Part shown: piece by piece, positions 1 through 50,506 of the stretch
How the letters are laid out: each line of letters opens with the position of its first letter
How positions within the stretch are numbered: position 1 is the first letter of the stretch
NCBI GenBank assembly: GCA_030390025.1
Contig: CM059431.1
Location: 150,786,001 to 150,850,000, forward strand
Reading direction: 5' to 3'
Origin: Squalus acanthias
Taxonomy: Eukaryota
DNA: 64,000 bases
The notes under the pieces: model-generated
Database searches by the model: none
Told to the model about the DNA's origin: nothing
What the model saw: the letters and a program-made list of their open reading frames with translations, nothing else
Position numbers and translations under genes: made by a program

Positions 1-18
1 TCTCCCTCTCTCTCTCAG

Positions 19-386
19 AATGCGTAGTTCAAAAATGCCACCAACAATAAAAGACAGGAAGAGGCCCCCTTTAAATAGCGCCCCCCCCAGCCCCACAGCG
101 ATTGATAGCGTTCCAGTCTTCTGGTCGTTGGAAGCGCCAGGCGGTAAGGCAGGGGGCGCCACTCAAATTCCGCTACGGGGCGCCCCAAGGGCGTTGCACC
201 ATGGAATGATGTCACAATCTGCGCGCGCAGGTGGTCGCAGCGGTAAGTTTTAGCGCCGCCGCACAATCTCAAGTTAAGTTCTCGAGCGGCGCAAACATCG
301 CTGCGCCCGGGCGTTAGCAGCTTTGCGCCCCATTAGCGCCCTCTTAAGGCGCTAACGGGTGGCGCAACCAAGTGAATTTTTACCCC
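19..386. mobile_element. GC-rich non-autonomous DNA transposon end (Harbinger/MITE-like)
   Basis: CpG-rich palindromic GCGCCC/GGGCG motifs ending in a TIR-like GTGAATTTTTACCCC; similar termini occur elsewhere in the window. Confidence 0.4.
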
Positions 387-399
387 TATGACTGTATGA

Positions 400-1540
400 C
401 ATAGACATAGAGAGGGACAGAGAGAAACAGAGGGGGAGAGAGAGTGAGACAGAGGGAGAGAGTGAAACAGAGGAAGAGAGAGAGTGAAACAGAGGGAGAG
501 AGAGACACACACACAGAAATAGACAGGGGCAGAGAGAAACAGAGGGAAAGATAAAAAAAAAAACAAAGGGAGAGAAACAGAGAGAGAGACAGACTCAGAG
601 AAAGTGACCACTCCTCTGAATTCTCAACACCCTCCTCTGACTTCCCAGCTCTTTATGTGACTCCGCTGAATTAACTCCAGCTCAACTTTGAACAAGGTTT
701 AAAAAATATCTGGACTGTGAAGCGACTGCAAAGTAATTGGAACCCTTTGTTTGTCATTTCACTTCAATTATGCAGTAATGAGTCTGATCTGATATCGAAC
801 ATGGTGTGGAAGAGCCGGCGTCCTGGATTATATATTGATAGTGAGTCGCTGGTGATCGCGGAGCAGGTCCCGGAGTGGTTTCACATTTTAGATAGTTTCA
901 AAAGTGCTCATTGGTATGAAAAAAAAGAAGCTGGGGGAGAGGGGGGGGGGGGGGAGAGAGAGAGAGAGGGGGGAGGGAGAGAGAGAGGGGGAGGGAGAGA
1001 GGGAGAGAGAGAGCGGGGTGCGAGAGAGACTGGGAGAGAGAGAGACCGGGAGAGAGAGACAGGGAGAGAGTGCTACATGGAGAGAGAGAGACAGGGAGAG
1101 AGAGAGGACGAGGGGAAGAGAGGGAGAGGGGAAGAGAGGGTGAGGGGATGAGAGGGAGAGTGGAAGAGGGGAAGAAAGGGAGAGGGGAAGTGAGAGGGGA
1201 GGGAGAGAGAGGGGATGGAGAGACAGTGGGGAGAGAGAGCGGGGAGACAGAGGCGAGAGAGAGGGTAGGGGGAGAGAGGGGAGAGAGAGAGGGGTGGGAG
1301 AAAGAAAGAGGGGAGGGGATGGAGAGAGAGTGGAGGGAGAGAGGGGCAGGGAGAGAGGGGAGATAGCAGGGGAGAGAGGGGAAGAGATAGAGGGGGAGAG
1401 GGGAGGGAGAGGGGAGAGAGAGAGAGCAACAGACAGGTAAGAGAGAGTGAGAGAGAGTGAGAGCGAGAGAGGGAGTGACAGAGAGCGAGAGTGAGAGCGA
1501 CAGACAGGGAGAGAGATCAACAGACAGAGAGAGCAAGTAA
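400..1540 (+). repeat. (GA)n / polypurine low-complexity tracts (about 400-605 and 930-1540)
   Basis: Degenerate GA/GGA repeats; source of the S/L/P- and R/E/G-rich spurious ORFs. Confidence 0.95.
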
Positions 1541-1553
1541 GAAAGAAAGCTTC

Positions 1554-2231
1554 ATCTTACTCTTTATCTCTTTCATCATCCAGGGAGCTCTGACTTTGGT
1601 TGCCCTACCTTTCCCCCTCGTGGGAATGTACCTCGACTGTACCCAAACCACCTCCTCTTTAAAGGCAGCCTATTATTCTATTACAGTTTTGCCTGCCAAT
1701 CTTTGATTCCAATTTACCCGGGCCAGATCCATTCTCAATCCACTGAAATTGGCCTTTCCTCCAATTAAGTATTTTTACTCTAGTTTGCTCCTTGTCCTTT
1801 TCCAAAGCTAATCTAAACCGTAGGATATTATGATCACTGTTTCCTAAATGTTCCCCGACTGACACTTGCTCCACTTGACCCACCTCATTCCCCAGAACCA
1901 GATCCAGCAATGCCTCCTTCCTCGTTGGGCCGGAAATGTACTGATTAAACTTCAGAAATTCTTCCCCCTCTCTGCCCTTTACACTATTACTATCCCAATC
2001 TATAGTAGGATAGTTGAAGGCCCCCTTTATCACTACTCTATAGTTCTTGAACCTCTCTGTAATTTCCCTGCAAATTTGCTCCTCTATATACTCCCCACTA
2101 GTTGGTGGCCGAAAGAATACACCTAGTAATGTAATGGCACCTCTATTGTTTCTTAACTCTAAGCAAATACATTCTGTCATTGACCCCTTCAGGACATCTT
2201 CTCCAGCACTGTAATATTCTCCGTAATCAAT
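1554..2231 (-). mobile_element. CR1 LINE ORF2 apurinic endonuclease fragment
   Basis: ORF 1659-2180: LGVFFRPP, FNYPTIDW, PTRKEALLDLVL, LGNSDHN. Confidence 0.9.
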
Positions 2232-2232
2232 A

Positions 2233-2891
2233 CTTTGTTTTTATTCATTCATGGGATGTGGGCGTTGCTGGCAAGGCCAGCATTTATTGCCCATCCCTAA
2301 TTACCCTAGAGAAGGTGGTGGTGTGCTGCCTTCTTGAACCGCTGCAGTCCATGTTGTGAAGGTACTCCCACAGTGCTGTTAGGGAGGGCGCTCCAGGATT
2401 TTGACCCAGCGATGATGAAGATCGGCGATATACTTCCAAGTCAGGATGGTGTGTGAGTTGGAGGGGAACTTGATGGTGGTGGAGTTCCAATGCGCCTGTT
2501 GCCCTTGTCCTTCTAGGTGCAAGAGGTCACGGGTTTGGGAGGTGCTGCCGAAGAAGCCTTGGCGAGTTGCTGCAGTGCATCTTGTAGATGTTACAGACTG
2601 CAGCCACGGTACGCTGGTGGTGGAGGGAGTGAATGTTTAAGGTGGTGAATGGGGTGCCAATTAAGTGGGCTGCCAATTAAGTGGGCTGCTTTGTCCTGGA
2701 TGGTGTCGAGCTTCTTGAGTGTTGTTGGAGCTGCACTCATCCAAGCAAGTGGAGAGTATTCCATCACACTACTTATTTGTGCCTTGTAGATGGTAGAGAG
2801 GCTTTAGGGAGTCAGGAGGTGAGACACTCGCCGCAGAATACCCAGCCTCTGACCTGCTCTTGTTGCCACAGTATTTATGTGGCTGGTCCAG
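2233..2891 (-). mobile_element. LINE 3' end (CR1-group, a family distinct from the main CR1s); runs into the gap
   Basis: Closely similar to 10420-11030; 3' tail ...CCCACATCCCATGAATGAATAAAAA. Confidence 0.85.
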
Positions 2892-3391
2892 NNNNNNNNN
2901 NNNNNNNNNNNNNNNNNNNNNNNNNNNNNNNNNNNNNNNNNNNNNNNNNNNNNNNNNNNNNNNNNNNNNNNNNNNNNNNNNNNNNNNNNNNNNNNNNNNN
3001 NNNNNNNNNNNNNNNNNNNNNNNNNNNNNNNNNNNNNNNNNNNNNNNNNNNNNNNNNNNNNNNNNNNNNNNNNNNNNNNNNNNNNNNNNNNNNNNNNNNN
3101 NNNNNNNNNNNNNNNNNNNNNNNNNNNNNNNNNNNNNNNNNNNNNNNNNNNNNNNNNNNNNNNNNNNNNNNNNNNNNNNNNNNNNNNNNNNNNNNNNNNN
3201 NNNNNNNNNNNNNNNNNNNNNNNNNNNNNNNNNNNNNNNNNNNNNNNNNNNNNNNNNNNNNNNNNNNNNNNNNNNNNNNNNNNNNNNNNNNNNNNNNNNN
3301 NNNNNNNNNNNNNNNNNNNNNNNNNNNNNNNNNNNNNNNNNNNNNNNNNNNNNNNNNNNNNNNNNNNNNNNNNNNNNNNNNNNNNNNNNNN
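2892..3391. other. Assembly gap (500 N)
   Basis: Run of N. Confidence 1.
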
Positions 3392-4927
3392 CTGGTCAGA
3401 GTGTGGGCTCTAAATAGTGATGAGAATATGGGCTATGATTTGTGATTAGAATGTTTGCTGTGATTTGTGATCAGAATGTTGATTGTGGTATGTGATCATA
3501 ATGTGGAGTTGATTTGTGATCAGAATGCGGGCTGTGATTTTTGATCAGAATTTTGGATGTGATTTGTAATCTCAGTGTAGTCTGATTTGTGGTCCGAATT
3601 TGGGATGTCATTTGAGGTCAGAATGTTGGCTATGATTTGAGATCAGAATGTAGACTGTGATTTGTGTTTAGTATGTGAACTGTAATTTGAGATCAGAATG
3701 TGGGCTGTGATTTGCGATCAGGATGTGCACTGTGACTTGTGATCAGAATGTGGACTGTGATTTGTTATCAGAATATGTGCTGTGATTTGTGTTCAGAATG
3801 TGTGCTGTGATTTGTGTTCAGAATGTGGACTGTGATTTGTGTTCAGAACGTGTGCTGTGATTTGTGTTTCAGAATGTGGACTGTGATCTGTGGTCAAGAT
3901 GTGGGCTAAGGTTTGTGTCCAGTTTGTGGGCTGTGATTTGTGATCAGAATGTGAACTGTCGTTTGTGATCAGAGTGTGGACTGTAATTTGTGTTCAGAAT
4001 GCGGATTGTGATTTGTAATGAGAAAGTGGACTATGATTTGTGATCAGAATTTGGGATGCGATTTGTGATCAGAATGTGGACTGTGATCTGTGATAAAAAT
4101 GTTGGCTGTGATTTGAGTCCAGAATGTGGGCTGTGATTTGTGATCAGAATGTGGACTATGATCTGTGATCACAATGCGGGCTGTTATTTGTGATCACAAT
4201 GTGGGTTATGATTTTTGATTAGAATGTGGACTGTGGTTAGTAATCTGAATGCGATCTGTGATTTGTGATCACAATATGTGCTGTGATTTGTGATCAGAAT
4301 GTGCTCTGTGATTTGTGATCACAATATGTGCTGTGATCTATGATTAAAACGTGGGCTGTGATTTATGACCAGAATGTGGACTGTCCTTGGTGATCAGATT
4401 GTTAACTGTGATTTGTGATCCGAATGTTGACATTGATATGTGATTACAATTTTGGATGTGATTTGCGATCAGAATGTGGGATATGATTTGTGATCAGAAC
4501 GTAGATTGTGATTCGCGATGAAAATGTGAGCTCTGATATGTGATCAGATTATATGCTTTGATTTGTGATTAGAATGTGTACAGTGATTGGGATCAGAATG
4601 TAGAATCTTATTTCTGGTCAGGGTGCGGGCTCTTATAAGTGATGAGAATATGGGCTATGATTTGTGTTCAGAATGTTTGCTGTGATTTGTTATCAGAATG
4701 AGGGCAATGATTGTGATCAGAATGTGAACTGTGATCTTTGTTCAGAATGTAAACTTTTATCTGTGATCAGAATGTGGGCTGTGATTTGTGATCAGAATTT
4801 GGGTTAAGATTTGAGATCTGAATGTGGGCTGTGATCTGTGATCAAATGTGGACTGTGATTTGTGATCAGAATTTGGACTGTGATTGGCGATTAGAATATT
4901 TACTCTGACTTGTGTTCAGAATGTGGG
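3392..4927 (+). repeat. 25-bp minisatellite/satellite, consensus about TGTGATTTGTGATCAGAATGTGGAC, roughly 60 diverged copies
   Basis: 25-bp periodicity visible, e.g. 3781-3855; degenerate units resume at about 5466-5517. Confidence 0.95.
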
Positions 4928-5467
4928 GCCCTCCTTTTTGATAAAAGAAGGTTATTGTTGCCATAGAGGGAGTGCAGCAAATTTCACCAGACTGGTTCCT
5001 GGGTTTGGGGCATTGTCCTATGATGAGAGTTTGAGTAGACTAGGCCTATATTCTCCGGAGTTTGGAAGAATGCGAGGTGATCTCATCGAAACAAACCAAA
5101 TTCTTACAGGGCTTGAGCCGGTACATGCAAGGAGGATGTTTCCCCTGGCCGAGGAGTCTAGAACCAGGGGTCACAGACTCAGAATAAGGGGTCGGCCATT
5201 TAGGACTGAGATGAGGAGAAATGTCTTCATTCAGAGGGTGGTGAATCTTTGGAATTCTGTACCCCAGCGTGCTGTGGAGGCTCAGTCGTTGGGTATATTA
5301 AAGACAGAGATCGACAGATTTTTGAATATTAAGGGAATCAATGAATATGGAGATAGTGCACGAAAGTGGAGATGACGTAGAAGATCAGCCATGATCTTAT
5401 TGAATGTCGGAGCAGGCTCGAAGGGCCGAATGGCCTACTCCTGCTCCTATTTCTTAGGTACTTATGT
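4928..5467 (+). mobile_element. CR1 LINE 3' fragment
   Basis: RMRGDLIE, RTRGH, RVVNLWNS and the typical 3' UTR and tail. Confidence 0.9.
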
Positions 5468-5978
5468 GATCTCTAATTTGATATCAGATATATGGGGGCT
5501 GTTTTGTGATCATAATGCTTTTTTTGATTGCAGTATGAGCACTCACTTGTGTCAAGGATTCAGTTAGTACTTCATTTTTTCTCGACAGTTTATCCCATCT
5601 TTTCCATTACGAATCAACATGCTCGGCTATAGATTGATTCGCTGCAATTTTCATGTACTGTATCTTCGTGTTTATGGTGCAAAGTAATATTGTAAACATT
5701 TTAATTAGTGCTACTGTAAATCTGTGAACATCCATGGAGTCAGTGATTATATGAAAATATATTAGTTCATATTTAAGAATCAGACCGCTGACTATTTTTA
5801 ATTCCTACTTTTGATTCACATCAGTTTAGGGGGCAATATTGAACAGTACAATCATTACACAAACGTGCATTTAGTGGAAATATAATTACAACAGAGCACT
5901 GAGATTGGATTAATGTACAGATTTACATAAAACATTTACATATATTACAGTTAGTTTACAGAAACGGTTATCAATACT

Positions 5979-5984
5979 TTTATT
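5979..5984 (-). terminator. Polyadenylation signal of the NLR gene
   Basis: AATAAA on the minus strand, about 40 nt after the stop codon. Confidence 0.55.
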
Positions 5985-6021
5985 GTCCCTGCGGATACTG
6001 TACTTGCAGTTTGTACCAAAG

Positions 6022-6109
6022 TCACACCCACACTTCCAGTCCAGCTCTGGATACTTGCAATGACCTCAGTTGTTTTTTTCCAAATACGGTGAAGTTGTTG
6101 CCAACCAAC
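6022..6109 (-). CDS. NLR gene terminal exon (LVGNNFTVFGKKQLRSLQVSRAGLEVWV*)
   Basis: Acceptor TGCTCTTTCAG|G; LRR-cap-like sequence; TGA at 6022-6024. Confidence 0.85.
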
Positions 6110-9100
6110 CTGAAAGAGCATTCAGCAATTAATATAAATAATATCAAAACAGTGAAATCGTGTTATAAACGGTACAATAATGCATTAATAGCACGGACTT
6201 ATTAATAAACCTACGCGTGGGACGCCCTTCAATTAATTGTCTGTGAGTATTGTAAAGCACAGTTATAGCATTGCGGGATGGATATTTCGTCAGTATGATA
6301 CCAGTTTACAAATAAACAAGGCGCGGAAAAATGAAGGGAAACTAGTGGCTCACTCACCTGATCCACTTCAGTCCTGAGCAGGTTTTTATGAGGCGCGTGA
6401 AGGTGGCAATGGATTTATCCCTGAAACAATTTCTGTCCAAGTCCAACCCCATCAAGGACCAATTTGCACCGACAGAAGAGGCAAGGTCTTCTGCGCATGC
6501 GTCTGTGAGGCCATTGTAATCCAATCTATACATGTGAGAGAGTCAAAGTTTAACTTCAGGGATTACTATTCTGTGCACATAAATTATGTGATAGTGCTCT
6601 TTATAATAATTTCAAATGTATTAACTCTATGTCATTATACAATCATTATCAACCGATACTTTGACGGATTCAGTGTGTTTCTCCTGCCTCAATATTGTGA
6701 TTTTGCAGTCGGGATCCCTCAGTGCGGCACACAGTCGTTTGGCTCCAGAATCGCCCAGACTGTTGTGGCTCAAGACCAATACTTCGAGTGTCCGGTTTAT
6801 ACTTAGAGCAGAGGCGAGGTGTTCAGCGCAAACATCGGTAAGTTGGTTATCCCACAACCTGCATCGGTCACAGAGATACAACTTTTTGTTCCAAGACACA
6901 CCTCAAAACATACAATGGTAACTTGTAAAAAATAAACAAACGTGCATTGATAGAGCCAGTTTCACATCCTCCGACCTCCACGAACGATCAGCCTTGGCTC
7001 AGTTAGTAGCTCTCTCGCCTCTAGCTCAGAAATTTGTGGGTTCATAGTACCACTCCCGAGAATTGCGCACGAAAATTTAGGCTGACACTCCAGTGCAGAA
7101 CTGAGGGAGTGCTGCACTGTCGGAGGTGCCGTTTTGCAGGTGAGACGTTAAACCGAGGCCTCGTCTGCCCTCTCAGATCGACGTAAAATATCCCATGACA
7201 CTATTTGGAAGAGGAGCCAAGGGAGCTGTCCCCGATGTCCGAGCCAATATACAGCCCTCAATCAACATCACTAAACACAGATTATCTGGTTATTATCACA
7301 TTGCTGTTTGTGTGAGATTGGCTGCCGCGTTTCCTACATTACAAGTGACTACACTTCAAAACAAGTACTTCATTGGCTGTAAAGCGCTTTTGGATGTCCG
7401 GATCTCGTGAAATCCTCTGCATAGATGCAAGTCTTTCTTTTTTTCTCCAAGTCAAAATGTTGTGGATTCAAGTCCCACTCCCGAGACTTGAGACCATAAT
7501 CTCGGCTGACACTGCAGTGCAGTATTGAGGGAGTGCTGCAGCTTCGGACTATTCCAGTGTCTTTTGGATGAGAGGCGAGAGAGTTGCCATGTGACGCAAA
7601 CCAATTAAGCAAACTGATAAATGCTCGGGAAAAAAGCTCTTTTAAGCAAGTTACAAAGTGTTCTCCTTACTCCAGCGTCTGTATTTTGCAGTCTGGTCTA
7701 CTCAATGCAGCGAAAAATCCTTCAGATGCCGAATCGCTCAATTTGTTCTCGTTTAGCCTAGAAAGAGACTGTTAATTAATTAAATCCCACCGTAAAACAT
7801 TAACGATTTGTTTCTTCCTTAATAAACAAAAGAAAATCCAACTTCAGAATAAGTACTCAGTAGATGACTAGAACATTGTGATTTGGGTTTTAATCTCAAC
7901 CCTGGCCACATAGAGATCCAAAGCAGGATTATTTACGATTGCCTTTGCTAAACGTGATTTCGGAGAAATTTTGCAAATCATAACCTGATTAGTTGTAGAC
8001 TGCCCTACATTGTACAAAACTGCCTGTAACCTGGCGATAATCGAACTCTATCATTCAAATAGCAATCGATGCAGTTATTACTCCAATTTGAAGAAAAAAA
8101 TGCAATTTCCTGTATGAGTGTTTTGTGTAGAAGAGGAGTCGATCATTTTGACTTGGTGTGGATTATTTGCAGTACACCAGGAAAATGAACAAATCGACGA
8201 AAGTGACATCAGCAAATTATTCACTCTGGCGAAAGCCTGAAGCAGAATGCAGCACCTTTGAAGCAGGAGGAAGTTTGGAGTTAGAACGAATGTTGAGTAT
8301 AACATTTTTTCAAACAGAACGCACTACAGCTCTGACAACATTCTAATGGAATATCTTTGAAGCAGACCATATAAATGAGTTAAATTATGCACCTACTTTG
8401 TTTCTGGTAATTAACAGTTTCTCGGGCCACCGTGAGAAGGAAGGCAAGTGTGGCTGGAGACCAATGAAGTGCCGACTTACTTCTTTGCCTAGTGAACTTT
8501 TCTTGCTTATAAAAATCAGCATTCCTATGACTACCACTGGCATATCTTAATTGATCCCTTCGGAAATTAGAACGTGCTTGTTCTATTCAGATTGCAGTTC
8601 AGGAGCATCTTGCACTTTGAAAATGTTTTGCACAGAACATGGACTCGTAGAGATTTCCACCCCAGAGTAACGCTATTTGTCCCATCTTGTTTGTGTCAGC
8701 TCGTTGGTTAAATAATCTAAAGCTAAATCCATTGCCTCGTTCTCTCTCCTATTAATCCCTCAACCAACATTACAAAAAAACAGATTATCTGGTAATTATC
8801 TCATTCCTGTTTGTGGGAGCTTGCTGTGCGCAAATTGGCTGCCCCGTTTCCTACATTACAACAGTGACTATACTCTAAAAGTACTTATTTGGCTGTAAAG
8901 TGATTTGAGACGCCCGGTGATCGTAAAAGGCGCTATATAAATGCAAGTCTTTATTTTTCTTTCTATAGCCCCGTGTCTTCATCTGCTTCTAGTGTTGAGC
9001 CAGATTCGCTTAACAGGCCCAATGGTCTCTGTCCCAACAACTCCCCATCTCAAAACATTTCTTGCAGGAATAACTCTCTTGGTAAAATCTGTAACAAGGA

Positions 9101-12100
9101 GTGACGCCTACCATATTAAATATATAGCTATATATATTACTTAACAACAGGTGACCATACCTCAGAACTTTACACTTATGCAGCACAGCTGTTAAGAGAC
9201 GCAATCCTCCATCTTCAATATAACACCTGTTGAGATTGAGCTCCAGAACCGTGCCGCATAATTCTAAACCCACCGCGACCGCAGCACAATCCATGGGGCT
9301 CAATTTTAGAGGGCTCCATCCTCCGAATGCAAGTCGGTTTACAGAGCCGACCGCGATCCGGGCTGGTTCTTCATTCTGATATTCATACAGGTGGTATGAA
9401 GTGTTCAGGAGGTCTGTTTTGCTCAGTTCACTGTTCATATTTTGAAGATCTAATTTGACCCGCGATTCGAGGAACCAAATTAATCGGCGAGTGGTCTCGC
9501 CCGGAAACGGACCCGAGAATTCCTCAAGCAAATGAGCTGAAATCGGTGAGCAAAGACCGAACAGAAAGCGTAGAAATGTCACGGACTGGCGTTCTGCCTT
9601 CCTGTAATGTTTTTCTAGGACTCTGATGAGATCTTCGGGGTCTGTGGTCAGAAACTGTCCAGCCACGGCTATGAAATGTTGAACTGGCGGATGGAGGAAT
9701 TTGTGTGTAACTCGGGCAGCAGAATCATCCTGCTCCAGGATTTCCGCCAGAAACGAGGACCGCAATTCTGATTTCCGGAATTTCTGGCGACAGACGCAGT
9801 CATCGAACACGGAGCTCTCATTACAGATTCCCTCGTAGGCCAGTTCACCCATTTTCAGCAGTAACTGACGTGGGTCTTTGATTTGCCCGGAATGAGTTTT
9901 TAACGCGTTGCCAAGGTAATTTGAAAGCAGGTGGGTGATGGTCACCGGAAGTTTTGCCACACGTCCAGGTTGGTGCGTAAAGAATGGTGCCAAAGATGCG
10001 CAGACGATTGCGCAGTTGGAGGGATTTGCACACAGGCTGTACAAGATAGCATTCTGCTCCACGTGCCGAAACGCTTCGGCCGCATTTTTTTCATTTCCAA
10101 AATAATTGCTGAAATATTCTTTTTTCTCCAGGCCAGAAAGTCCCCCTATTCTGTTGTCATTCTCAAAAGTGGAATGAATTTCCGGCCGCTCATTCTGAAA
10201 GCGAGGCGGTTTTTTATGCCGCTGTTCCAAGTCTAAATGTAAAACTTAAAAGAAAACGTTTAGATCATTGTTGTAATCGTTTCTCTCTCCCTGCATTAAT
10301 TTTTAGCTTTGATTTTACATCTTTGAGAAGTTTAAAATTGTAGAAATTGGAATTTAAAATGAATATTGAACAATATCTAAATGAGCGCCTCGCCAGACGC
10401 TTAAAATTAAAAAAACAAATTATTCGTTTGTTTATGGGATGTGGGCGTCGCTGGCCCATCCCTAATTGCCATTGAGAAGGTGCTGGTGGGCCGCCTTCTT
10501 GAGCCGCTGCAGTCTGTGTGGTGAAGGTACTCCCACAATGCTGTTAGGGAGGGAGTTCCAGGATTTTGACCCAGCGACGATGAAGGATCTGCGATATACT
10601 TCTAAGTCAGGATGGTGTGTGATTTGGAGGTGAACTTGGAGGTGGTGGTGTTCCCATGCGCCTGCTGCCCTTGTCCTTCTAGGTGGAAGAGGTCGCGGGT
10701 TTGGGAGGTGCTGCCGAAGAAGCCTTGGCGAGTTGCTGCAGTGCATCTTGTAGCTGGTACACACTGCAGCCAAGGTACGCTGGTGGTGGAGGGAGTGAAT
10801 GGTTAATGTGGTGGATGGGGTGCCAATTAAGCGGGCTGCTTTGTCCTGGATGGTGTCGAGCTTCTTGAGTGCTGTTGGAGTTGCACTCATCAAGACAAGT
10901 GGAGAGTATTCCATCACACTCCTTATTTGTGCCTTGTAGATGTTGGAAAGGTTTTGGGGAGTCAGGAGGTGAGATACTCGCCTCAGAATACCTTAGCTCT
11001 GACCTGCTCTTGTTGCCACAGTATTTATGCCTCTATTGCAATTGCTGCTGATTTTTATATGATGTTTGCAATCTTTCTTTCAGCCTACAGAATTGAATCG
11101 ACTTAGATGCTATAATTTCTCTCGTTTGTTAATTTTACAGACACTTTTAAAATTCTTACATTGGAACAGTTTTCTTTTTAAACATTGCGAATTGGGTAAC
11201 TGTTACGCTATTGCTGGGAAATCCTACTTACCCTTTAGATGATCCGGTTCTTCACCGGCCAGAGTAATCTGGACTGATGGCAATGGGTGGTTGGCATCTA
11301 AAGGAAATGATATCTGATCTTTAATTAAATGTTTCACAATGATGGAGTTTATTAAACAAATATGTCAGTCATATTTATTTCAAAAGTGATATCTTGGCAA
11401 GTCAAACGTTCACTTGCAATTACTAGCATGGTTATCAAACATTTTGTTAAACAATCATAGCTTAAAAATAAGCCCCAAATTATGAATTGTAAAATAGCCT
11501 TCACTTTCATTTGTGTGTATTTCTTTCATTCAGATGTATACAATGAGTGTGCAAGTTTAAATATTGGTTGGCATCACTGGAGGCGGCGATGACTGGTTAA
11601 ATATTGAAGTACATATCCTCAAATAATATAAACTATGTATTGTTGTTTCTTTACTTTCTTTACTGTAGGGAGCATGATTAAGAAGTTTGCAGATGATGCA
11701 AAAATTGGCCGTGTGTTTCATAGTGAGGAGGAAAGCGGGAGACTGCAGGAAGATATCAATGGACTGGTCAGGTGGGCAGAAAGTTGCAAATGGAATTCAG
11801 TCCGGAGAAGTGTGAGCTAATGCATTTGGGGAGGGCTAACTATGCAAGGGAATACACATAAAAGGTAGGATACTGAGAAATGTAGAGGAACTGAAGAACC
11901 TTGGAGTGCATATCCACAGCTCCCTAAAGGTACCTGGACAGGTAGATAAGGCGGTTAAGAAGGCATACCGGATACTTTACTTTATTAGCCGAGGCAAAGA
12001 ATATAAGAGCAGAGAGGTTATTCTTGAACTGTATGAAACACTGGTTACACCACAGCTAGAATACTGCGTGCATTTCTGGTCACCACATTACAGGAAAGAT

Positions 12101-14354
12101 GTGAGTTCACTGGAGAGGGTGCAGAGATAATTTACGAGGATATTGCCAGGAGTGGAGAATGTTAGCTATGAGGAAAGACTGGATAGGCGGGTTTGTTTTC
12201 TTTAGAACAGAGGCGGCAGATGGGAGACTAAATTGAAGTGTATTAAATTATGAGGGGCCTAGATAGATTCGATAAGAAGGACCTATTTCCCATAGCAGAG
12301 CGGTCAATAACGAGGGGGCATAGATTTGAAGTAATTGGCAGAAGGATTAGAGGGAATTGAGGAGAACTTTTTTCAGCCAGAGGGTGGCGGGGGTCTGGAA
12401 GTCACTGCCTGATAGGGTGGCGGGGGTCTGGAACTCACTGCCTGAAAGGGTGGCGGGGGTCTGGAACTCACTGCCTGATAGGGTGGCGGGGGTCTGGAAC
12501 TCACTGCATGAAAGGGTGGCGGGGGTCTGGAACTCACTGCCTGATAGGGTGGCGGGGGTGTGGAACTCACTGCCTGAAAGGGTGGCGGGGGTCTGGAACT
12601 CACTGCCTGATAGGGTGGCGGGGGTCTGGAAGTCACTGCCTGAAAGGTTGGCGGGGGTCTGGAACTCACTGCCTGAAAGGGTGGCGGGGGTCTGGGCGTT
12701 AGGAGAGAAAGACTCGGGGGAAATGGAACGTTCTTGTTTGGCGGGATGTGACAAGTGGAGTTCACCAGGGATCTTTAATGGGACGTCAGCTTTTCACCAC
12801 ATATATTAATGACATGGATAAAGGATTATGGGGGCTGAATTGTTCGTGGGTGGTAGTACAAAACGTGCGATTGCGAATCGGCAGCCTGTTGGCTCTCAAT
12901 TATCTTTGCCATTGAAGTCAACAGTAAACAAAATCCGGCAGCCTGAAAAGTGGGCTGCCGATTAGGTATCGCCCGTTTTGCGTTGCAGCCCAAGACCAAT
13001 TTCAGCCTCAGAGAGTTGCAAATCAAAGTTGCTGGAGGAAATAATTAGCTCCAGAAGAATTCTGACACCAAAGTCCATAAAATGATGATTGACATAACGC
13101 GTTTCCTTGTAGGGAGGCATATTCATTAGATAAATGGTTGGGAAGGACCAAACCTTCTATTATAAAGTATAATGGACCTAAAATTGCGGTCGGAGGCTTC
13201 ACGCGGGCGAATACCTCCGATCCGCAAGAAAAGTACGCACCTACCTGGTCCTTCCATATCTTCCAACTCTTGCAGTCCTGGGCCTGCAGGCCTACGCCTG
13301 CGTAAAGGCCCATGCATCCCAGGAGCGCACGCGGTTCGCAAGCGTCCCTGGGATCACGTGGGCCAGTCCAACCAATCACAAAAAAGATTCCCATTATGCT
13401 CTGGGGTTTCCATTTACGCACGGAATCCGCATAAGCATATTAGGAATTAAATAAAAACACACTTTCGCACAACCTAAATAAAAATAAAAAAACACTTGCT
13501 TCAATTTAATAAAGATACAATTCAATTAAACATTTAAAACAGCAATGTAATTTTTTGAAAAATAAACTTAAACATTTTTAAAGGGGCCAAAAATAACCTC
13601 ACTTAATTTTAAAGATTTTTGAAGGTTTAAATGATTTTAAAAATAATATTTTAATATTTATTTTCACCCTTACGCTTGTAAAGTTAGGGCCTTCGCCTAC
13701 TTTTACCAGGCATAAGTGTTTCGTGGACATTCGCTGGGCAGTAGTCGGGCAAATAGCCCAACTCGCTGCCAGCAAAAGACCACTTCCTGCGCATGTGGAT
13801 GATCTGTCCAGCTGAAACTTGACAGGTTGCAAGGTTTGGGTTTGCTTGCATGCATAGCGCACGCGGAAACCCGGAACTTACGGGGCACCTACGACCGCGT
13901 ACGCTCTGCGTTCGTAGTCATAGGCCCCATTAGATCCGGGCCATAAAGTGTCACAACATGTACCTGTGTTTCTCTTTACTTCCGGAGTTGGCTTGGTTTG
14001 ATCCTGATCGGCATGCTCAGCTCTGGAGCACTTCAAACTTAATACATCCGGGCTATCTGCTGAGGCTGCCCCTGGGATCAACGTTGCTCCGAGATGATGA
14101 GAGATTGCATCGTTTGATAGAGCAGCTCCAGGATTTGTGAGTGAGAACAGGCCTGTGACGGATTCCACTGCTACAAGTGTCTGGTTTTCTTTTAAGGTCA
14201 TATGCTGATATTTACAACATATGTAATTTAACACTGTTCTTAAGCAACTGCAGTTTCCATCACTTCTGGTGACAGCTTGCTCCGGTTGTCTATTGCTGAC
14301 TTCAGCGGTGTAGATTGTAGAGTCCATGTTTTTGGCTGTTTCCATACTCGTCAT
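6022..14354 (-). CDS. NLR-family (NLRC3/NLRP-like) protein lacking the NACHT nucleotide-binding subdomain; join(complement 13964-14354, 11232-11297, 9161-10232, 7671-7757, 6688-6858, 6358-6525, 6022-6109), 2043 nt, 680 aa
   Basis: Seven exons join in frame with consistent phases (1,1,2,2,2,2). All acceptors are AG; donors are GT except one GC. HD1/WHD/HD2 motifs and RI-type LRRs are present; TGA at 6022-6024; AATAAA at 5979-5984. The start codon and first exon are the least certain part. Confidence 0.8.
6358..6525 (-). CDS. NLR gene 168-nt LRR exon (LDYNGLTDACAEDLASSV...CSGLKWI)
   Basis: Acceptor TATAG|A, donor CAG|GTGAGT; phase 2-2; open frame. Confidence 0.9.
6688..6858 (-). CDS. NLR gene 171-nt LRR exon (LWDNQLTDVCAEHLASAL...DPDCKITIL)
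   Basis: ORF 6627-6899; 171 nt is the usual two-LRR exon size; acceptor GATGCAG|G; donor reads AG|GCAGGA (GC). Confidence 0.88.
6990..7442 (+). mobile_element. tRNA-derived Deu-domain SINE (SacSINE1-like), followed by an inverted partial copy at about 7445-7590
   Basis: TGTCGGAGGTGCCG...GAGACGTTAAACCGAGG core and ...GCAAGTCTTTCTTT tail. Confidence 0.75.
7671..7757 (-). CDS. NLR gene 87-nt LRR exon (LNENKLSDSASEGFFAALSRPDCKIQTL)
   Basis: Acceptor TCTCTTTCTAG|G, donor GA|GTAAGG; phase 2-2; RI-type LRR. Confidence 0.9.
8748..8962 (+). mobile_element. Deu-domain SINE 3' part
   Basis: Matches 7255-7440; tail GGCGCTATATAAATGCAAGTCTTT. Confidence 0.7.
9161..10232 (-). CDS. NLR gene large exon: NACHT-associated HD1, WHD, HD2 and first LRR
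   Basis: ORF 9010-10230 contains EKKEYF, LCANPSNCAIVC (HD1), LLKMGELAYEG, FLHPPVQHFIA (WHD), FLRFLFGL, HLYEYQN and LSPMDCAAV. Acceptor CATTTAG|AC; donor CTGAG|GTATGG. Confidence 0.92.
10420..11030 (-). mobile_element. LINE ORF2 C-terminus and 3' UTR (CR1-group), intronic
   Basis: ORF 10462-10917: MEYSPL...LDTIQDKAARLI...SFIVAGSKSWNSLP. Confidence 0.85.
11232..11297 (-). CDS. NLR gene 66-nt linker exon (DANHPLPSVQITLAGEEPDHLK)
   Basis: Acceptor TTTCCTTTAG|AT, donor AAGG|GTAAGT; symmetric phase 1-1; open frame. Confidence 0.7.
11665..12695 (+). mobile_element. CR1 LINE RT/C-terminal fragment, intronic
   Basis: KFADDAK, PQLEYCVHFWSP, LERVQR. Confidence 0.9.
12381..12695 (+). repeat. 33-bp tandem repeat AGGGTGGCGGGGGTCTGGAACTCACTGCCTGA(T/A), about 9.5 copies
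   Basis: Units start at 12381+33n; translates as RVAGVWNSLP(D/E). Confidence 0.97.
12830..13008. mobile_element. Short MITE-like element
   Basis: Termini GGGGCTGAATTG ... CAATTTCAGCC; internal inverted AATCGGCAGCC/GGCTGCCGATT. Confidence 0.45.
13174..13928 (-). mobile_element. Hairpin-rich non-autonomous DNA transposon (Harbinger/MITE-like family), copy 1
   Basis: GC-rich palindromic ends and AT-rich centre; homologous to 31395-31983 and 38784-40203. Confidence 0.6.
13964..14354 (-). CDS. NLR gene putative first coding exon (MTSMETAK...EVKRNT), low-complexity N-terminus
   Basis: ORF 13878-14354; donor CAG|GTACAT at 13964/13963 (phase 1); strong upstream acceptor TTTTTTTCTCTTACCAG|G at 14651; in-frame stop near 14490. 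Confidence 0.55.
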
Positions 14355-14698
14355 CGTTTTGCACCCTACTGATCTTTGATTTGATGTATATTCGCCGTTC
14401 CTTGTTAAGATGGAATTGATGCGGCTGGAAGCACAGTCTGGATATTGTTTGATCTTATCATTCCTCCCTCTCCCTGTGGATTCAGTCCATCACATGAGGG
14501 GATCACTGCGTTCCCATTACAAAATTAAGCTGTGCCTCATGATACCACCTTCAAAACCTCAGAATTGAATTTTTAATTGTCCTGTTCATAGGTAAATCAT
14601 TTTCTCTTCCTGCAGGAGCTGTAGGCGAATGTTTCGAATCAAGTTAATTTCCTGGTAAGAGAAAAAAACAAGGATATACAGTCTTCCAAACATTCTTA

Positions 14699-15275
14699 AG
14701 GTGTTGCTATGGGAACCTGCATGGGTCATCGACCTGAAACGTTAACTCTCTTTCTCTCTCCACAGATGCTGCCTGGCCTGCTGAGTTTTTCCAGCGTTTT
14801 CTGTTGTTATTTGGGTCCTATCTATGTCTGCCTTTTCGTGGGATATGTGGAACATTGTTTGTTCCAGTCCTACTCATGTCCCCTCCCTCAGCTCTTTTTG
14901 CGGTACATTGATGACTGTATCGGTGCTGTTTCCTGCTCTCGCCCTGAACTAGAAAATGTAATTCACTTTGCTTCCAATTTCCACCCGTCCCTCACATTCA
15001 CATGGTCCATCTCCCACTCTTCCCTTCCCTTCCTCGACTTATCTCTCTCCATTTATGGGGATACGCTATCGACAAACATCCATTATAAGCCCACTGACTC
15101 CCACAGCTACCTGGACAACACTTCCTTCCATCCCGCTTCCTGTAAGAAAAAGGTAATCGATCTGAAAAGTAAACTCTGTTTCTCTCTCCACAGATGCTGC
15201 CTGACCTGAGTATTTCCAGCATTTTCTGTTTTTTGTTCAGATTTCCAACATCCACAGTACATTGCTGTTGTATTC
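14699..15275 (+). mobile_element. Penelope-like element: RT fragment plus pseudo-LTR pieces
   Basis: GVAMGTCMG...LFVGYVE...FLRYIDDC...LPFLDL...HYKPTDSHSYL...HP; pLTR-like GAAACGTTAACTCT...CCACAGATGCTGCC at 14727-14811 and 15146-15275. Confidence 0.85.
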
Positions 15276-15469
15276 TTATTTCCCCGGCTCATTATGGAAT
15301 AATTTCAGAAAAAGTTCCAATCAGCATAATTTGAGAGAAGTCAATCCCTCACAATAACCAAATAACTTTTTGCTGTGGTAGATTCAAAATAATAACAAAA
15401 ACAACAATAATAAAATCATGAATATTATTTATTATCAGCATTTTTGTTTAACGTTATCAGGTTGCATAC

Positions 15470-16870
15470 ATAGAGAGAAAGTGGGGAATTACAGACCGGT
15501 AAGCCTGACATCGGTAGTGGGGAAAATGCTAGAGTCCATTATAAAGATTGTAATAGCTGAGCTCTTGAAATACAGTGACAGGATCGGACAAAGTCAACAT
15601 GGATATACAAAAGGTAAATCGTGCTTGACTAATCTACTGGAATTTTTTGAGGATGTACCAGGGAAAATAGATAAAGGAGAACCAGTAGATGTGGTGTATT
15701 TGGACTTTCAAAAGGCTTTCGATAAGGTCACGCATAAGAGATTAGCGTGTAAAGTTAAGGCACATGGGATTAGGGGCAAGGTATTGACTTGGATAGAGAA
15801 CTGGTTGGCGGACAGAAAGCAAAGAGTAGGAATTAATGGCTCTTTTTTCCGAGTGGCAAGCAGGGATCGGTCCATGGACCCCAGCTATTCACAATATACA
15901 TTAATGATCTAGATCAGGGAACTAAATGTAATATATCCAAGTTTGCAGATGACACAAAGCTGGGTGGCAGTGTGTGCTGCGAGGAGGATACTGAGAAACT
16001 CCAGGATGATTTGGACAGGTTGGGTGAGTGGGTAGAAGCGTGGCAGATGCAATATAACGTGGATAAATGCGAGGTTATCCACTTTGGTGTCAAAAACAGA
16101 AAGGCACACTATTATCTGAATGGCAATAGATTGGGAGAAGGGAAAGTGCAACGAGACCTGGGTGTCCTTGTGCACCAGTCGCTGAAGGTAAGCATGCAGG
16201 TGCAGCAGGCGGTGAAGAAGGCATTGGTTTGTTGGCCTTCATAGCGAAAGGTTTTGAGTATAGGAACAGGGATGTCATGCTGCAGTTGTACAGGGCCTTT
16301 TTGAGACCACACCTTGAGTACTGTGTGCAGTTTTGGTCGCCTTATCTGAGGATGGATGTTCTTGCCATGGAAGGAGTTCAGCGAAGATTCACAAGGCTCA
16401 TACCTGGGATGGCAGTAATGACATATGAGGAGAGATTGGGTCGATTGGGCTTATACTCGCTGGAGTATAGAAGAATGAGAGGGGATCTCATCGAAACATA
16501 TAAAATTCTGACAAGTCTGGACAGACTGGATGCAGGAAGAATGTTCCCGATGGTCGGAGCGTCCAGAACCAGGGGTCATAATCTAAGGATAAGGGATAAG
16601 CCATTTAGGACAGAAATGAGGAAGAATTTCTTCACCCAGAGAGTGGTGAACCTGTGGAATTCTCTACCACAGAAGGTAGTTGAGGCCAAGTCATTAAATA
16701 TATTCAAGAATGAGTTAGATATATTTCTTAAATCTAAAGGTATCAAGGGATATGGGGAGAAGACAGGTACAGGTTACTGAGTTTGGATGATCAGCCATGA
16801 TCTCATCGAATGGCGGAGCAGGCTCGAGGGGCCGAATGGCCTACTCCTGCTCCTATCTTCTATGTTTCTA
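15470..16870 (+). mobile_element. CR1 LINE RT and 3' end
   Basis: NYRPVSLTS, YLDFQKAFD, FADD, PHLEYC; 3' tail. Confidence 0.93.
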
Positions 16871-18097: not shown

Positions 18098-20110
18098 TCA
18101 TAAGAACAAAAGAATTAGGAGCAGGAGTTGTCCATACGGCCCCTCGAGCTTGCTCCCCCATTCGATAAGACCATGGCTGATCATCGACTTCAACTCCACT
18201 TTCCCGCCCGAGCTCCATATCCTTTGATTCCCCTAGAGTCCAAATATCTATCTATATCTGCATTGATTGTAAGATTCAACATCCAACTCCCTCTGGGGCA
18301 GAGAATTCAAAAGATTCTGAACACACCGTGTGAAGAAATTACTTCTGATCTCAGTCTTAAATGTCCGAACCATTAGTCTGTGAATATGCCCCCTAGTTCT
18401 AGAGTCTCCATCCAGGTGAAACAAGCTCTCAGCATCTACCCTTTCAATCCCCCTCAGAATCCAATATGTTTTAGTGAGATCCCCTCATTCTTCTAAACTC
18501 CAGAGAATATAGGCCCAATCTACTCAATCTCGCCTCATAGGGCATACCTCTCATCCCAAGATTCAATCTACTGAACCTTCGTTGTACCGTCTCTACGGCA
18601 AGTATATCCTTCCTCAGATAAGGAGATCCAAACTGTGCACAGTACTCCAGGTGTGGTCTCATGAAAGCCTTGTACAATTGCAGCAAAACTTCCTTACTCT
18701 TATACTCCAACCCCCTTGCATTAAAGGCCAACATCCCATTTGACTTCCTAAATCCTTGCTGTATCTGCCTGCTAACTCTCTGTGTTTCCTGTACGGGGTC
18801 ACCTAACTTTCTCTGTATGTGAAGGCACTTGGGGAGGTGCAGATGGGACTTACAAGAATGGTTCTGGGGATGGGGGTTTGTAGCTATAAGTACAGGTTGG
18901 AGAAGCAGGATTTATTTTCATTAGAGCAAAGGAAATTGAGGGGTGATTTGATAGAAGTGTACAAGATTATTACGGCTTTGAAAAGGCTAGACAGCGAAAG
19001 TCTGTTCCCACTCGTTGATGGTACAAGCACTAGGGGACACCGATTTAAGGTTTTGGGCAAGAGATACAGGGGGTTTGTGAGTAAAAACTTTTTTACGTCG
19101 CGAGTGGTGAGGACCTGGAACTCGCTGCTGACGGACATGGTGGAAGCGGAGGCATTCAATATTTTCAAGAGGGGACTGGATAGGCACTTGAGGGAAATAA
19201 ACTTGCAGGGCTACGGGGATAGAGCGGGGGAATGGGACTGACTGGATTACTCTACAGAGATCCGGCACGGTCTCGATGTGCCGAATGGCCTCCTTCTGTG
19301 CCGTTATGACTCTTTGACTCTGTGCCATTGAATAGTTTCTCACCATCCAAAAATGTTCTGTTTTTCTATTCTTCCTAACAATGTGAATAACCTCACATTT
19401 CCCCACATTATACTATTCTGACACCTTATTGTCCGCTCACTTGACCTGTCTATATCCGGCTATTAAAAACCCGTATGGGAACCTTGGCTTTATTAATAGA
19501 GGAGTAGAGTACAATTGCACGAAAGTTATGCTACAGAGTTAGAAAACGCTGCTTAGGCCTCAGATGCATTATTGTGTTCAATTCAGGACACCATATTTTA
19601 GGAAGAATCGCAAGGCCTTGGAGAAGTTGCAGAAGAGATTTGCTAAAATGTTATCAGGATGAGGGACTTTAGTTATGTGGAGAGACTGGAGGAGCTGGGT
19701 TTGTTCTCCTTGGAGCAAAGAAGGTTAAGAGGTTTGATGGAGGTGTTTAAAATCATGAATGCTTTTGATAGAGTTAATATGGAGAAACTGTTTCCAGTGG
19801 CAGAAGAGTCAGCAACCAGAGGACACAGATTTCTGGTAAATAGCAAAAGATCCAGGGGCGACAGGAGGAAACATATTTTTACAGAGCGCGCTGTGATCTG
19901 GAATGCGCTGCCTGAACTGGTGTTGGAAGCAGATTCAATAGTAACATTCAAAAAAGAATTGGATACATATTTGCAGAGAGAAAAAATCATAGGGCTATGG
20001 GGAAAGAGCAGGGCAGTCAAATTAATTGGATAATTCTACCAGAGAGCAGGCACGGGCACGATGGGCCGAATCGCCTCCTTCTGTGCTGTATTATTCTATG
20101 ATTCTACGAT
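18098..20110. mobile_element. Cluster of CR1 fragments: minus 18098-18815 and 19325-19460, plus 18816-19324, plus 19460-20110
   Basis: ORFs 18471-18734(-), 18819-19241(+) and 19659-20033(+) carry CR1 C-terminal motifs and tails. Confidence 0.88.
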
Positions 20111-42585: not shown

Positions 42586-43644
42586 CCATCGGCCGTATAA
42601 TGCTTCTGTCTAAACACTGATTTCGAAATAAGAAAAGATTCTAGTTTGACCGATACCTCTCGCTGATCTTTAGCATCCTCCTGTAAATTTTCGTTGCCTG
42701 CCCTTCGTTGACCAATACCGCTATTGTCTGAACTTCCCTCCACTTATAGCACCAGTGTACGCTTTCCTATATATCGTTTGTCATTCACCATCCTTCCTGT
42801 GTTAAAATCAACTTTCAGCGTCCATTCTCCCTCTCCAACTCTTTCCTTTCCATACCATTGGAACATTTGATCTCTCTTGAACAAATCTTTTTAAAACTTC
42901 AGATCTTTAAAATGCAAACATAGAATCATAGGATCATAGAAAGTTACAGCACGGAAGGAGTCCATTTCAGCCCATCGTGTCCGTGCCGGCCAACCAAGAG
43001 CTATCCAGCCTAATCCCACTTCCCAGCTCTTGGTCCGTAGCCCTGCAGGTTACAGCATGCCAAGTGCACATTCAAGTACTTTTTAAATGTGGTTAGGGTT
43101 CCTGCCTCTACCATCACTTCAGGCAGTGAGTTCCGGGACCCCACAACCATATGGGTAAAGACATTTCCCCTCAAATCCCCTCTAAAGCTTCCACCAATTA
43201 CTTTCAATCTGTGCCCCCTGGTTTTTGACCCCTCTGCTAAGGGAATTAGGTGCTTTCTATCCACTTTATCCAGGCCCCACATAATTATAAACACCTCAAT
43301 ATGGTCTCCTCTCAGCCTCCTCCGTTCCATGGAAAACAGACTCAGCCTATCCAGTCTTTCCTCATAGCTAAGATTCTTTACTCCCGGCAACATCCTTGTA
43401 AATCTCCTCTGTTCCCTCTCTAGTGCAATCACATCTTTCCTGTAATGTGGTGACCAGAACTGCATGCAGTACTCTAGCTGAGGCCTAACTACTGTTTTAT
43501 ACAGTTGAAGCATAACTCCCCTGCTCTTGTATTCTATGCCACGGCTAATAAAGGCAAGCATTCCGTATGCCTTCTTAACCACCTTATCTACCTGGCCTGT
43601 TACCTTCAGGGATCTGTGGACATGCACTCCAAGGTCCCTTTGTT

Positions 43645-49600: not shown

Positions 49601-50506
49601 ATTCCCCTGGGAAACCATCTCTCCCAGCAGTAGCCAAAACGGAAAATCTGTTGGAGAGGGAGATGGACCCAGGGGACTCCTGCACTACCTTCCTAGTTCT
49701 TTTACTCTGTCTGGCGGTCACCCATTTCCTGACTGCCTGTGCACTCTTTACCTGCGGTGTGACCACCTCGTTAAACGTACTATCCACGAAGATCTCAGCT
49801 TCGCGGATGCTCCACAGTGACTCCAGCCGCAGCTCCAGCTCCGAAACGCGGATTTCGAGTAGCTTCAGCTGGAGAAACTTCCTCCACATGTGTTCGCCGT
49901 GGACAGCTAAAGTGGCCCTGACTTCCCACATAGCACAGGAGGATCACTCCACGCAGCCGAGCTGCCCTGCCATGTCCTACCCTTAATTTACACCATTTAC
50001 TTCCTTTAAATTAAAGAATATTGAATACACTAGGGACCTTACTTCCCTTTAAACACTACTTACTCTAAACTACACACCTTACTTTGACTTTAAGGACTGG
50101 ACTGTAGCAATACTCACCAGGTCCTACTTACCAATCAGCTCCTTCACTGGTTGTGACGTCTCTTTAGCGGTTTCGCAGTTGTTGCTGTTTGACTGCTCCC
50201 GCTCTCAGACTCGTTCCTTGATGTACAGTAAGAACCAATTCCTACAGGGTCAAAAGTTAGGAAAAATAAAGGCGAAGCAAGGGAGCTCCTCCTTCCACTC
50301 CTCATCTAACTCCCTGACTCACCCAACTCGCAGCACTCTGTTTAAACCGCACTCATTCTCTGCGCTCGGTCTCCACCCAGGGCCGCTCTCGCTGCCTCTG
50401 CTGCCGGTGAGTCTGAGCCGCTCTTTCTCTCTCCCCGCTCTTTAAATCCTCGGTCTCTGCGCTCGGTCTCCACCCAGGGCCGCTCTCGCTGCTGCCGCCG
50501 GTGAGA
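43645..50506 (-). mobile_element. Middle full-length CR1 LINE (43645-46135 and 48496-50506)
   Basis: ORF1 with SGNH esterase-like DGLHLN (48778-49931), endonuclease (45617-46135), RT (44043-45195); 20-bp TSD. Confidence 0.88.
46136..48495 (-). mobile_element. Inner, youngest 5'-truncated CR1 LINE with an uninterrupted 540-aa RT/C-terminal ORF (46223-47845)
   Basis: PGPDG, YRPVSLTS, YMDFSKAFD, PQGSVLGP, FADD; only two in-frame nonsense codons (about 47850 and 48315) and no frameshift seen; (TTCTATG)-type tail. Confidence 0.95.

Follow-up and report, generated by a model that had tools for sequence, protein, structure and literature searches.

Can an NLR outlive the loss of its own motor? The nucleotide-binding domain (NBD) is regarded as the part that an NLR cannot do without, being both its switch and the engine of its oligomerisation, and the question is raised by a stretch of 64,000 nucleotides from Squalus acanthias (contig CM059431.1, positions 150,786,001 to 150,850,000; hereinafter the window, with positions counted from its first letter). 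On the minus strand of the window, at 9161..10232, lies a large exon that encodes the HD1, WHD and HD2 modules of an NLR and the first leucine-rich repeat (LRR), and does so without the NBD. An earlier interpretation made from the letters of the window (hereinafter the sequence-only reading) had taken this exon for part of an otherwise intact NLR from which the entire NBD was lost in frame long ago. The analysis presented here leads us to consider it likely that the locus is an NLR-derived gene that lost the NBD through an old in-frame deletion, that has been kept open and foldable in at least seven shark species, and the product of which would be an ATP-independent binding regulator.

What exactly does the exon contain, and what is missing from it? 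The exon is the second of six in a minus-strand gene (14354-6022) that was delineated by tblastn with the whale shark protein P0002 and by reading of the splice sites, and its boundaries turned out to be exactly those first proposed. It spans 1072 nt between the acceptor tttag/AC at 10233/10232 and the donor AG/gtatgg at 9161/9160, within a stop-to-stop frame of 411 aa (9010-10245, minus strand), and its translation (P0001), 356 full codons without a stop, opens with LEQRHKKPPRFQNERPEIHSTFENDN. The first 27 residues comprise a remnant of the FISNA start and a linker; HD1, WHD, HD2 and the first LRR follow. The scar of the deletion lies at 10147..10155 (minus strand), codons N-R-I, where ..STFENDN joins RIGGLSG, such that the sequence D-LEQRHKK...STFENDN passes at codons 10155-10147 directly into RIGGLSGLEKKEYF; in our alignments, the IGGL at the scar is a remnant of the EILGF strand that closes the NBD. 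The absence of the Walker A, Walker B and sensor-1 motifs from this exon, claimed in the sequence-only reading, is borne out by Pfam, a six-frame motif scan and tblastn alike. The profile search came out as it had been predicted to: NACHT (PF05729) gives no match in exon 2 at E<=1, and NLRC4_HD2 (PF17776, 3e-9) and NOD2_WH (PF17779, 6e-5) both score above their curated cut-offs. Walker B and sensor-1 patterns of the NLR type occur in none of the six frames of the whole 64-kb window, and the loose Walker A pattern G-x4-GK[ST] has four chance matches there, all outside the gene and one of them containing a stop. When the FISNA and NBD part of two full-length paralogues was compared with the window by tblastn, nothing better than E=2.1 was found; the full paralogue exon matches the window only at 10149-9160 (E 3.9e-83).

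The nature of the loss becomes apparent from comparison with the other members of the family in the same genome. In the 3.71 Gb of this genome, there are at least 547 first-look candidates for a related exon, and 114 of these were scored. Only 3 of the 114 matches start at residue 1 of the query; the remaining 111 start from residue 27-33 onward and typically lie within open frames of about 590-650 aa. Nearly all scored relatives are 42-45% identical to the window gene over HD1-WHD-HD2 and the first LRR; many map to the chromosome-scale contig C7 at 137-158 Mb, as well as to many small contigs, and a minority of the scored exons contain a single in-frame stop. The start of the exon is preserved on both sides of the comparison: the window exon begins with tttag/AC TTG GAA CAG CGG CAT AAA AAA (D-LEQRHKK), and two full-length paralogues begin with gaag/AT GTT CAA CAG AAA CAC AAG GAA (L010, D-VQQKHKE) and aaag/GC ATC CAA AAG CAG CAC AAG (L005, G-IQKQHKE), with the same position of the acceptor, the same phase and the same opening residues. 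From this start to ILGF, the paralogues have 250-252 residues, including GIGKT, DGLDE and TSRP, vs 28 in the window gene, and in the Pfam controls the paralogues match NACHT (E 1e-34 to 1e-37) and, weakly, FISNA (E 0.008), the latter from the start of the exon. Together, the shared acceptor, phase and opening residues and the FISNA and NACHT of the paralogues indicate that the acceptor and the start of FISNA were kept and that reading picks up again with the final NBD strand. By this comparison, about 222-224 codons were deleted in frame from the interior of the exon, comprising the rest of FISNA and the whole NBD (Walker A, Walker B and sensor 1), and the original suggestion of an in-frame loss within the exon holds, given that the paralogues carry 222-224 extra residues before EILGF. 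An alternative placement of residues 1-27 on the end of the NBD (..IQHKLLPGCSVLVTSRP..), produced by MAFFT, was rejected because its 'RP' is not common to the orthologues; it is also countered by the match of the exon start, the phase and the D-[LV]-x-Q-x-HK-E pattern to the exon start of the paralogues.

How old is this deletion? Gene models with the same architecture are present in Rhincodon typus (XP_048476761), Chiloscyllium plagiosum (XP_043539114), C. punctatum (XP_072420835), Mustelus asterias (XP_078087638), Scyliorhinus torazame (XP_072354230) and S. canicula (XP_038656853), where public annotation names them 'NLRP1/3/5/6-like'. These proteins are 47-56% identical to the window protein and share with it the deletion junction, a di-cysteine (CC) motif in the N-terminal part, the LRR exons and, at the C-terminus, EVWV. 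In Pfam scans, NACHT was detected in none of eight orthologous models (P0002, P0004-7, P0158, P0160, P0162) and in all five full-length elasmobranch representatives. The junction itself (..ET.STF.ND.. followed by ..GLS.LE..EYF) is kept in 5/5 aligned orthologue models, and the alignment of the window protein with P0002 runs without a gap across it for 345 residues (52% identity). In the maximum-likelihood tree built from 326 shared columns, the seven NBD-less sequences form one clade with a support of 100 in the approximate likelihood-ratio test (SH-aLRT), on a long stem (0.5 substitutions per site) that is nested among full-length shark and ray NLRs. This nesting, along with the exon start and phase shared with full-length NLRs, speaks for descent from NLR genes, and the deletion junction, monophyly and a separate N-terminal exon bearing the CC motif place the window gene in the orthologous group. 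What sets the window gene apart from the orthologues is a 6-residue insert in the linker (KPPRFQ), a branch outside the other five species in the tree (SH-aLRT 93) and triplication in its own genome. Two further models were excluded from the group: P0015 of Mustelus asterias, in which a piece of a full-length-type NLR without NACHT is joined at its C-terminus to retroelement-like sequence, and P0074, which is truncated at the N-terminus but has kept the sensor-1 strand at its start. The former is an example of broken NLR copies entering public annotation.

Because the junction is shared across orders within a single clade, the deletion is best read as old and of single origin, common to Orectolobiformes, Carcharhiniformes and Squalus acanthias, that is, to at least seven shark species. 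That the deletion is old, as proposed at the outset, is thus upheld by six models from other sharks, and the orthologous models do not show the NBD, the retention of which in all orthologues would have spoken against the proposal. The junction also recurs in two more genomic copies, and for this reason, together with its recurrence in the six other-shark models, it is neither a chance feature nor the product of assembly collapse. The split between orectolobiforms and carcharhiniforms is on the order of 150-250 million years old. No date for the divergence of shark orders is given in the accessible passages of PMC3692497 and PMC8455134.

Does the lineage then merely linger, or is it maintained? 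The mean pairwise identity among six species rises steadily along the protein as the share of gap columns falls: 0.32 in the N-terminus (58 gap columns of 135), 0.41 in HD1 (3/88), 0.52 in WHD (1/81), 0.58 in HD2 (0/99) and 0.70 in the LRR part (0/232), which is the best conserved part of the protein. There is no gap in the 331 columns of HD2 and LRR. Moreover, the entropy of individual sites in the NBD-less clade is correlated with the values for 59 full-length NLRs (Spearman 0.26, p 4e-6, 317 columns), and columns that do not vary within this clade are better conserved in full-length NLRs than the others (Mann-Whitney p 4e-5). Against this background, several positions depart from the pattern of the family: a proline of HD1, which in NLR structures contacts the nucleotide, is present in 100% of full-length NLRs and retained in only 2 of 6 NBD-less species, and the E-I-x-G-F columns are mostly lost, whereas the WHD motif F-x-H-x3-Q-x-F-x-A is retained in 6/6. 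This pattern of relaxation fits a loss of nucleotide binding. A frame that stays free of stops and indels at about 50% protein divergence would be unlike neutral decay, and because neither a stop nor an indel is found in 331 columns at this divergence, we infer that the lineage has been retained rather than left to decay.

The remaining exons complete the picture of an intact gene. Exon 1 (13964..14354, minus strand, 391 nt), which was found with residues 30-163 of P0002 as the tblastn query, starts with ATG, encodes an N-terminal region of 130 residues and ends with the donor ACAG/gtacat in phase 1; its final G and the AC of exon 2 form a GAC codon (D), in agreement with the Mustelus model (..EVKQDT-DLD..). 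Downstream of exon 2, all on the minus strand, there are exon 3 (LRRa, 7671..7757, 87 nt, (R)LNENKLSD...IQTL(E), acceptor ctag/G, donor GA/gtaagg), exon 4 (LRRb, 6688..6858, 171 nt, with the non-canonical donor AG/gcaggag of a GC-AG intron), exon 5 (LRRc, 6358..6525, 168 nt, acceptor tatag/A, donor AG/gtgagt) and the terminal exon 6 (6022..6109, 88 nt including the TGA stop, C-terminus ..FGKKQLRSLQ...LEVWV). All exon phases fit, and the coding sequence of 1977 nt, or 658 codons, is intact, in line with the initial observation that HD1, WHD, HD2, the LRR exons and the terminal exon are free of stops and frameshifts. The four open LRR and terminal exons, together with LRR_6 and LRR_1 matches in the orthologues, identify the repeats as those of the ribonuclease-inhibitor type. 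The intron that separates exon 1 from exon 2 contains, at 12347-12809, a tandem array with a 33-bp unit that is open in several frames; the array is also present in the two other copies of the gene.

The structural predictions agree with this assignment. The AlphaFold2 model of exon 2 from the window, built on a 65-row alignment, has a predicted local distance difference test score (pLDDT) of 89.1 and a predicted template modelling score of 0.87; residues 1-27 fall below a pLDDT of 50 and residues 28-356 are folded. In a Foldseek search of the PDB with this model, NLRP3 (8swk, E 1.2e-12) comes top, followed by NOD2 (5irm), NLRP7, NLRP2, NLRP9, NLRP14 and NLRP1, with probability 1.00 for the matches to NLRP3, NOD2 and NLRP7. 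Pfam, AlphaFold2 and Foldseek thus all recover the HD1-WHD-HD2 modules that in NLRs follow the position of the NBD, and the NACHT domain is recovered by none of Pfam, motif scan and tblastn. In the model of the S. torazame orthologue (P0160), the part downstream of residue 173 folds as HD1-WHD-HD2 and about 8 LRR units (beta-alpha repeats), and residues 1-173 have a pLDDT below 50, that is, are predicted to be disordered save for a short low-confidence helix. The N-terminal exon gives no Pfam family at E<=1 and no usable match in the ESM Atlas, and its only relatives in the own genome are three matches, all at the three copies of the gene; neither PYD nor CARD nor BIR is present. Taken together, the lack of a Pfam family, the lack of genomic relatives beyond the copies and the predicted disorder indicate that there is no death-fold effector domain and that the N-terminus is a lineage-specific, predicted disordered region. 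The product would accordingly be short of PYD and CARD as well as of the NBD, which adds to what had been noticed before. The only conserved feature of the N-terminus is ..C-L-R-x2-[FL]-x-[CY]-[LI]-C-C.., after which come basic residues and, further on, ..C-L-S-N..; the window protein has ..NYICCKY.. here, the CC is found in 5/6 species rows (CW in P0162), and an alternative N-terminus in Mustelus starts with MCCR. By analogy, this conserved di-cysteine, which comes after a short helix, may serve to anchor the protein through palmitoylation.

What could such a protein do? The likeliest chain of events would begin with a member of the greatly expanded elasmobranch FISNA-NACHT-LRR ('NLRP3-like') family that, in a shark ancestor, lost about 222 codons in frame, with the original acceptor and the first residues becoming fused to HD1-WHD-HD2-LRR. 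From the general mechanism of STAND (signal transduction ATPases with numerous domains) proteins and NLRs, one would expect the product neither to bind and hydrolyse ATP nor to switch between ADP and ATP, nor to form an NBD-driven oligomer, because the NBD is missing; likewise, with PYD and CARD missing, it would not recruit adaptors. The protein probably works without ATP. It could then act as an ATP-independent binding module, of which the LRR/HD2 half would bind either a ligand or the LRR and HD surfaces of full-length paralogues, and thereby as a non-signalling regulator, that is, a decoy, chain terminator, cap or sequestering partner, perhaps at a membrane. A decoy or dominant-negative role of this kind was already among the possibilities raised in the sequence-only reading and is a hypothetical one. 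A bolder version, that sharks maintain a motor-less and effector-less class of NLRs which is tethered to membranes by palmitoylation of the di-cysteine, binds either the ligands or the LRR/HD surfaces of the hundreds of full-length paralogues and in this way sets the activation threshold of the full-length NLR arsenal, we regard as a tentative proposal that is rather more likely to be wrong than right.

Several considerations weigh against the interpretation that we favour. The orthologues are computational gene models. None of the sequencing runs listed for the exon contains it as RNA, and three small runs (X1-X3) that carry the same species label, and the type of which was guessed, give depth over 5900-14500 on intronic repeats only and zero depth in every exon-containing bin, which speaks neither for nor against expression. 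The binding partner or ligand that the regulatory role calls for is hypothetical, and the connection of the CC motif with palmitoylation is one that we presume from other proteins. In each of the three genomic copies, LRRb is followed by a GC donor, and its context is mediocre. Because this donor recurs in the three copies and the isoform X2 model of S. canicula (P0007) lacks exactly LRRc, the exon next after the GC-donor intron, alternative splicing of LRRc may be a conserved feature. The remaining adverse points come from the comparison of the copies. Copy 2 lies 173 kb away at C7:150.62 Mb; it is intact and, over 9.2 kb including introns, 98.8% identical to the window copy. Copy 3, at C7:152.63 Mb, is 94.9% identical and is a pseudogene, in which codon 176 reads TGA and the start ATG has become AAG. 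All three share the junction (98.8% and 94.9% identity over 7-9 kb including introns). The ratio of non-synonymous to synonymous rates (omega, Nei-Gojobori) is 0.52 between the window copy and copy 2 (4 synonymous and 7 non-synonymous changes, the 11 exonic differences between the two) and 0.80 between the window copy and the pseudogene (18 and 49, respectively; p 0.26 vs neutral), figures that come from few changes and include a pseudogene copy. Broken down by region, this within-genome omega comes to about 0.29 for the LRR part, as against about 1.2 for the HD part, again on few changes.

These numbers bring up the alternative that fares best, namely, that the duplicate in the window is young, redundant and on its way to becoming a pseudogene and that the function of the lineage resides in copy 2, which we deem a serious contender even if somewhat less probable than its negation. 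Polarised by copy 3, the window copy gained 7 non-synonymous and 2 synonymous changes, vs 0 and 2 in copy 2, with similar numbers of non-coding changes (26 and 21, respectively, of 5224 sites). Hence the exons of the window copy have changed at the rate of its non-coding DNA (9/1977 and 26/5224), whereas those of copy 2 have changed about 4 times less than its non-coding DNA (2/1977 vs 21/5224). Three of the changes in the window copy, A320V, V321A and L409S, fall on residues that do not vary among 5 orthologues, and the conserved F-x-A-A-V-G motif is among the sites affected; the Pfam match to HD2 is weaker in the window copy (3e-9) than in copy 2 (1.7e-11); and copy 3 shows that at least one duplicate has already decayed. 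Conversely, the open reading frame and all splice sites of the window copy are intact and identical to those of copy 2, the contrast of 7 to 2 with 0 to 2 comes with a Fisher value of about 0.11 on small numbers, and rapid amino-acid change is also expected from diversifying selection on an immune gene. Given that its exon rate equals its non-coding rate, unlike the case of copy 2, selection on the window copy may be relaxed or diversifying and the copy itself redundant. Its evolution after the last duplication has run at the neutral rate, so that the principal functional gene may be copy 2.

A neighbouring gene shares this history of duplication. The GCNT-like frame at 54894-55724 (plus strand) encodes a Core-2/I-branching enzyme domain (Pfam Branch, 1.1e-33), and copies of this 2-kb stretch are found at C7:150662936 and C7:152683819, about 40-50 kb from copies 2 and 3 of the NLR gene, so that an NLR+GCNT block was triplicated. 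The GCNT part of the block is 91% identical vs 98.8% and 94.9% for the NLR part, which suggests that the block diverged unevenly or underwent gene conversion.

Could the lineage be functional in a different capacity? An ATP-independent scaffold without an immune role, comparable to the mammalian reproductive NLRPs of the subcortical maternal complex and the cytoplasmic lattices, would account for the lack of an effector domain and for the LRR being the best conserved part, and Foldseek indeed matches the NLRP2, NLRP5-type, NLRP7 and NLRP14 chains of structures of these assemblies (E 1e-10 to 1e-8). The mammalian reproductive NLRPs, however, keep their NACHT domain, and the nearest relatives of the shark gene belong to a massively expanded, fast-evolving family of the immune type. 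We consider this option improbable.

Still less can be said for the view that the NBD-less lineage as a whole has no function and is a relic, some processed or decaying piece of an NLR to which gene predictors return again and again. The missing RNA support and the within-genome omega near 1 would be expected under this view, and truncated or broken NLR models, such as P0015 of Mustelus, are common. It would nonetheless have to explain how, at about 50% divergence, six species show no stops and no gap in the 331 HD2 and LRR columns, why conservation is graded by domain and correlated with that of full-length NLRs, why the intron-exon structure and a specific N-terminal exon were kept, and why the exons of copy 2 are 4 times less changed than its non-coding DNA. 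Decay is, in short, unlikely for the lineage and plausible for the window copy, and as an account of the lineage as a whole we assign it a very low probability. Finally, that the missing NBD is an artefact of assembly collapse at about 10155, or is supplied by a separate exon or in trans by an NBD-only gene, we hardly credit at all: a partner in trans is conceivable among the hundreds of NACHT-bearing paralogues in the genome, but the HD1 proline is lost in 4/6 species, and the collapse and hidden-exon versions are already contradicted by the same junction in three copies and in the models of six other species, by its position inside a continuous exon and by the absence of NBD-like sequence anywhere in the 64-kb window.

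Many fragments of retroelements of the long interspersed nuclear element type (RVT_1, endonuclease-reverse transcriptase) lie at 1659-2240 (minus strand), 10462-10992 (minus strand), 14700-16780 (plus strand), 18471-20035 and 43010-51924 (minus strand), with a reverse transcriptase frame of 541 aa at 46223-47848. Within the last cluster, the frame at 48778-49317 has a GDSL-lipase-like match (E 3.6e-7) below the curated cut-off. GC skew amounts to +0.26 to +0.30 at 1-6000 and to -0.3 to -0.5 across 44000-58000, a strand asymmetry that probably reflects oriented repeats.

Returning to the NBD-less, NLR-derived gene that we favour, how does it relate to the systems that are already known? It shares the exon architecture, acceptor, phase and type of LRR exon with the elasmobranch FISNA-NACHT-LRR expansion and differs from it in the lack of about 222 codons and of a CARD-like N-terminus, as well as in an N-terminal exon of its own. 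The structures of NLRP3, NOD2 and NLRP7 (8swk, 5irm and 9lq2) have the same HD1-WHD-HD2-LRR fold (Foldseek E 1e-12 to 5e-11; template modelling score normalised to the query, 0.62-0.67), yet all three hold an NBD that binds ADP or ATP and is packed on these very domains, whereas the window protein has none. PYD-only proteins (POPs), CARD-only proteins (COPs) and CARD8 are derivatives of inflammasome genes that arose by domain loss and that regulate or replace the parent. The window gene resembles them in being a retained duplicate of an immune-signalling gene with a partial loss of domains. The direction of the loss is the opposite: POPs, COPs and CARD8 keep the death-fold effector and lose the sensor, and the window gene keeps HD1-WHD-HD2-LRR and loses both motor and effector.

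In openly searchable full text, with subscription journals outside its coverage, we came upon no account of a conserved shark NLR with a deleted NBD. The accessible parts of the whale shark genome paper report the expansion of an NLRP-related family, list one 'NLRP' (XP_020376766.1, supplementary file 11) along with several NLR-like sequences without a detectable NACHT, and regard the NACHT-less sequences as possible false negatives of domain detection (PMC8455134). The orthologous proteins, then, are already public under NLRP-like names, and it is the conserved NBD-less lineage that we did not find described.

For annotation, the implication is that shark NLRs 'lacking a detectable NACHT' need not be false negatives. 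If the lineage has indeed been retained, it would amount to a natural experiment, running across shark orders, on what HD1-WHD-HD2-LRR does alone. Should the regulatory role prove true, the very large NLR expansions of cartilaginous fish would have, in this gene, a candidate for an endogenous regulator. And if the tentative proposal of a threshold-setting class is correct, it would be a sensor-side counterpart of the mammalian PYD-only and CARD-only inhibitors, one that predates the split between orectolobiforms and carcharhiniforms.

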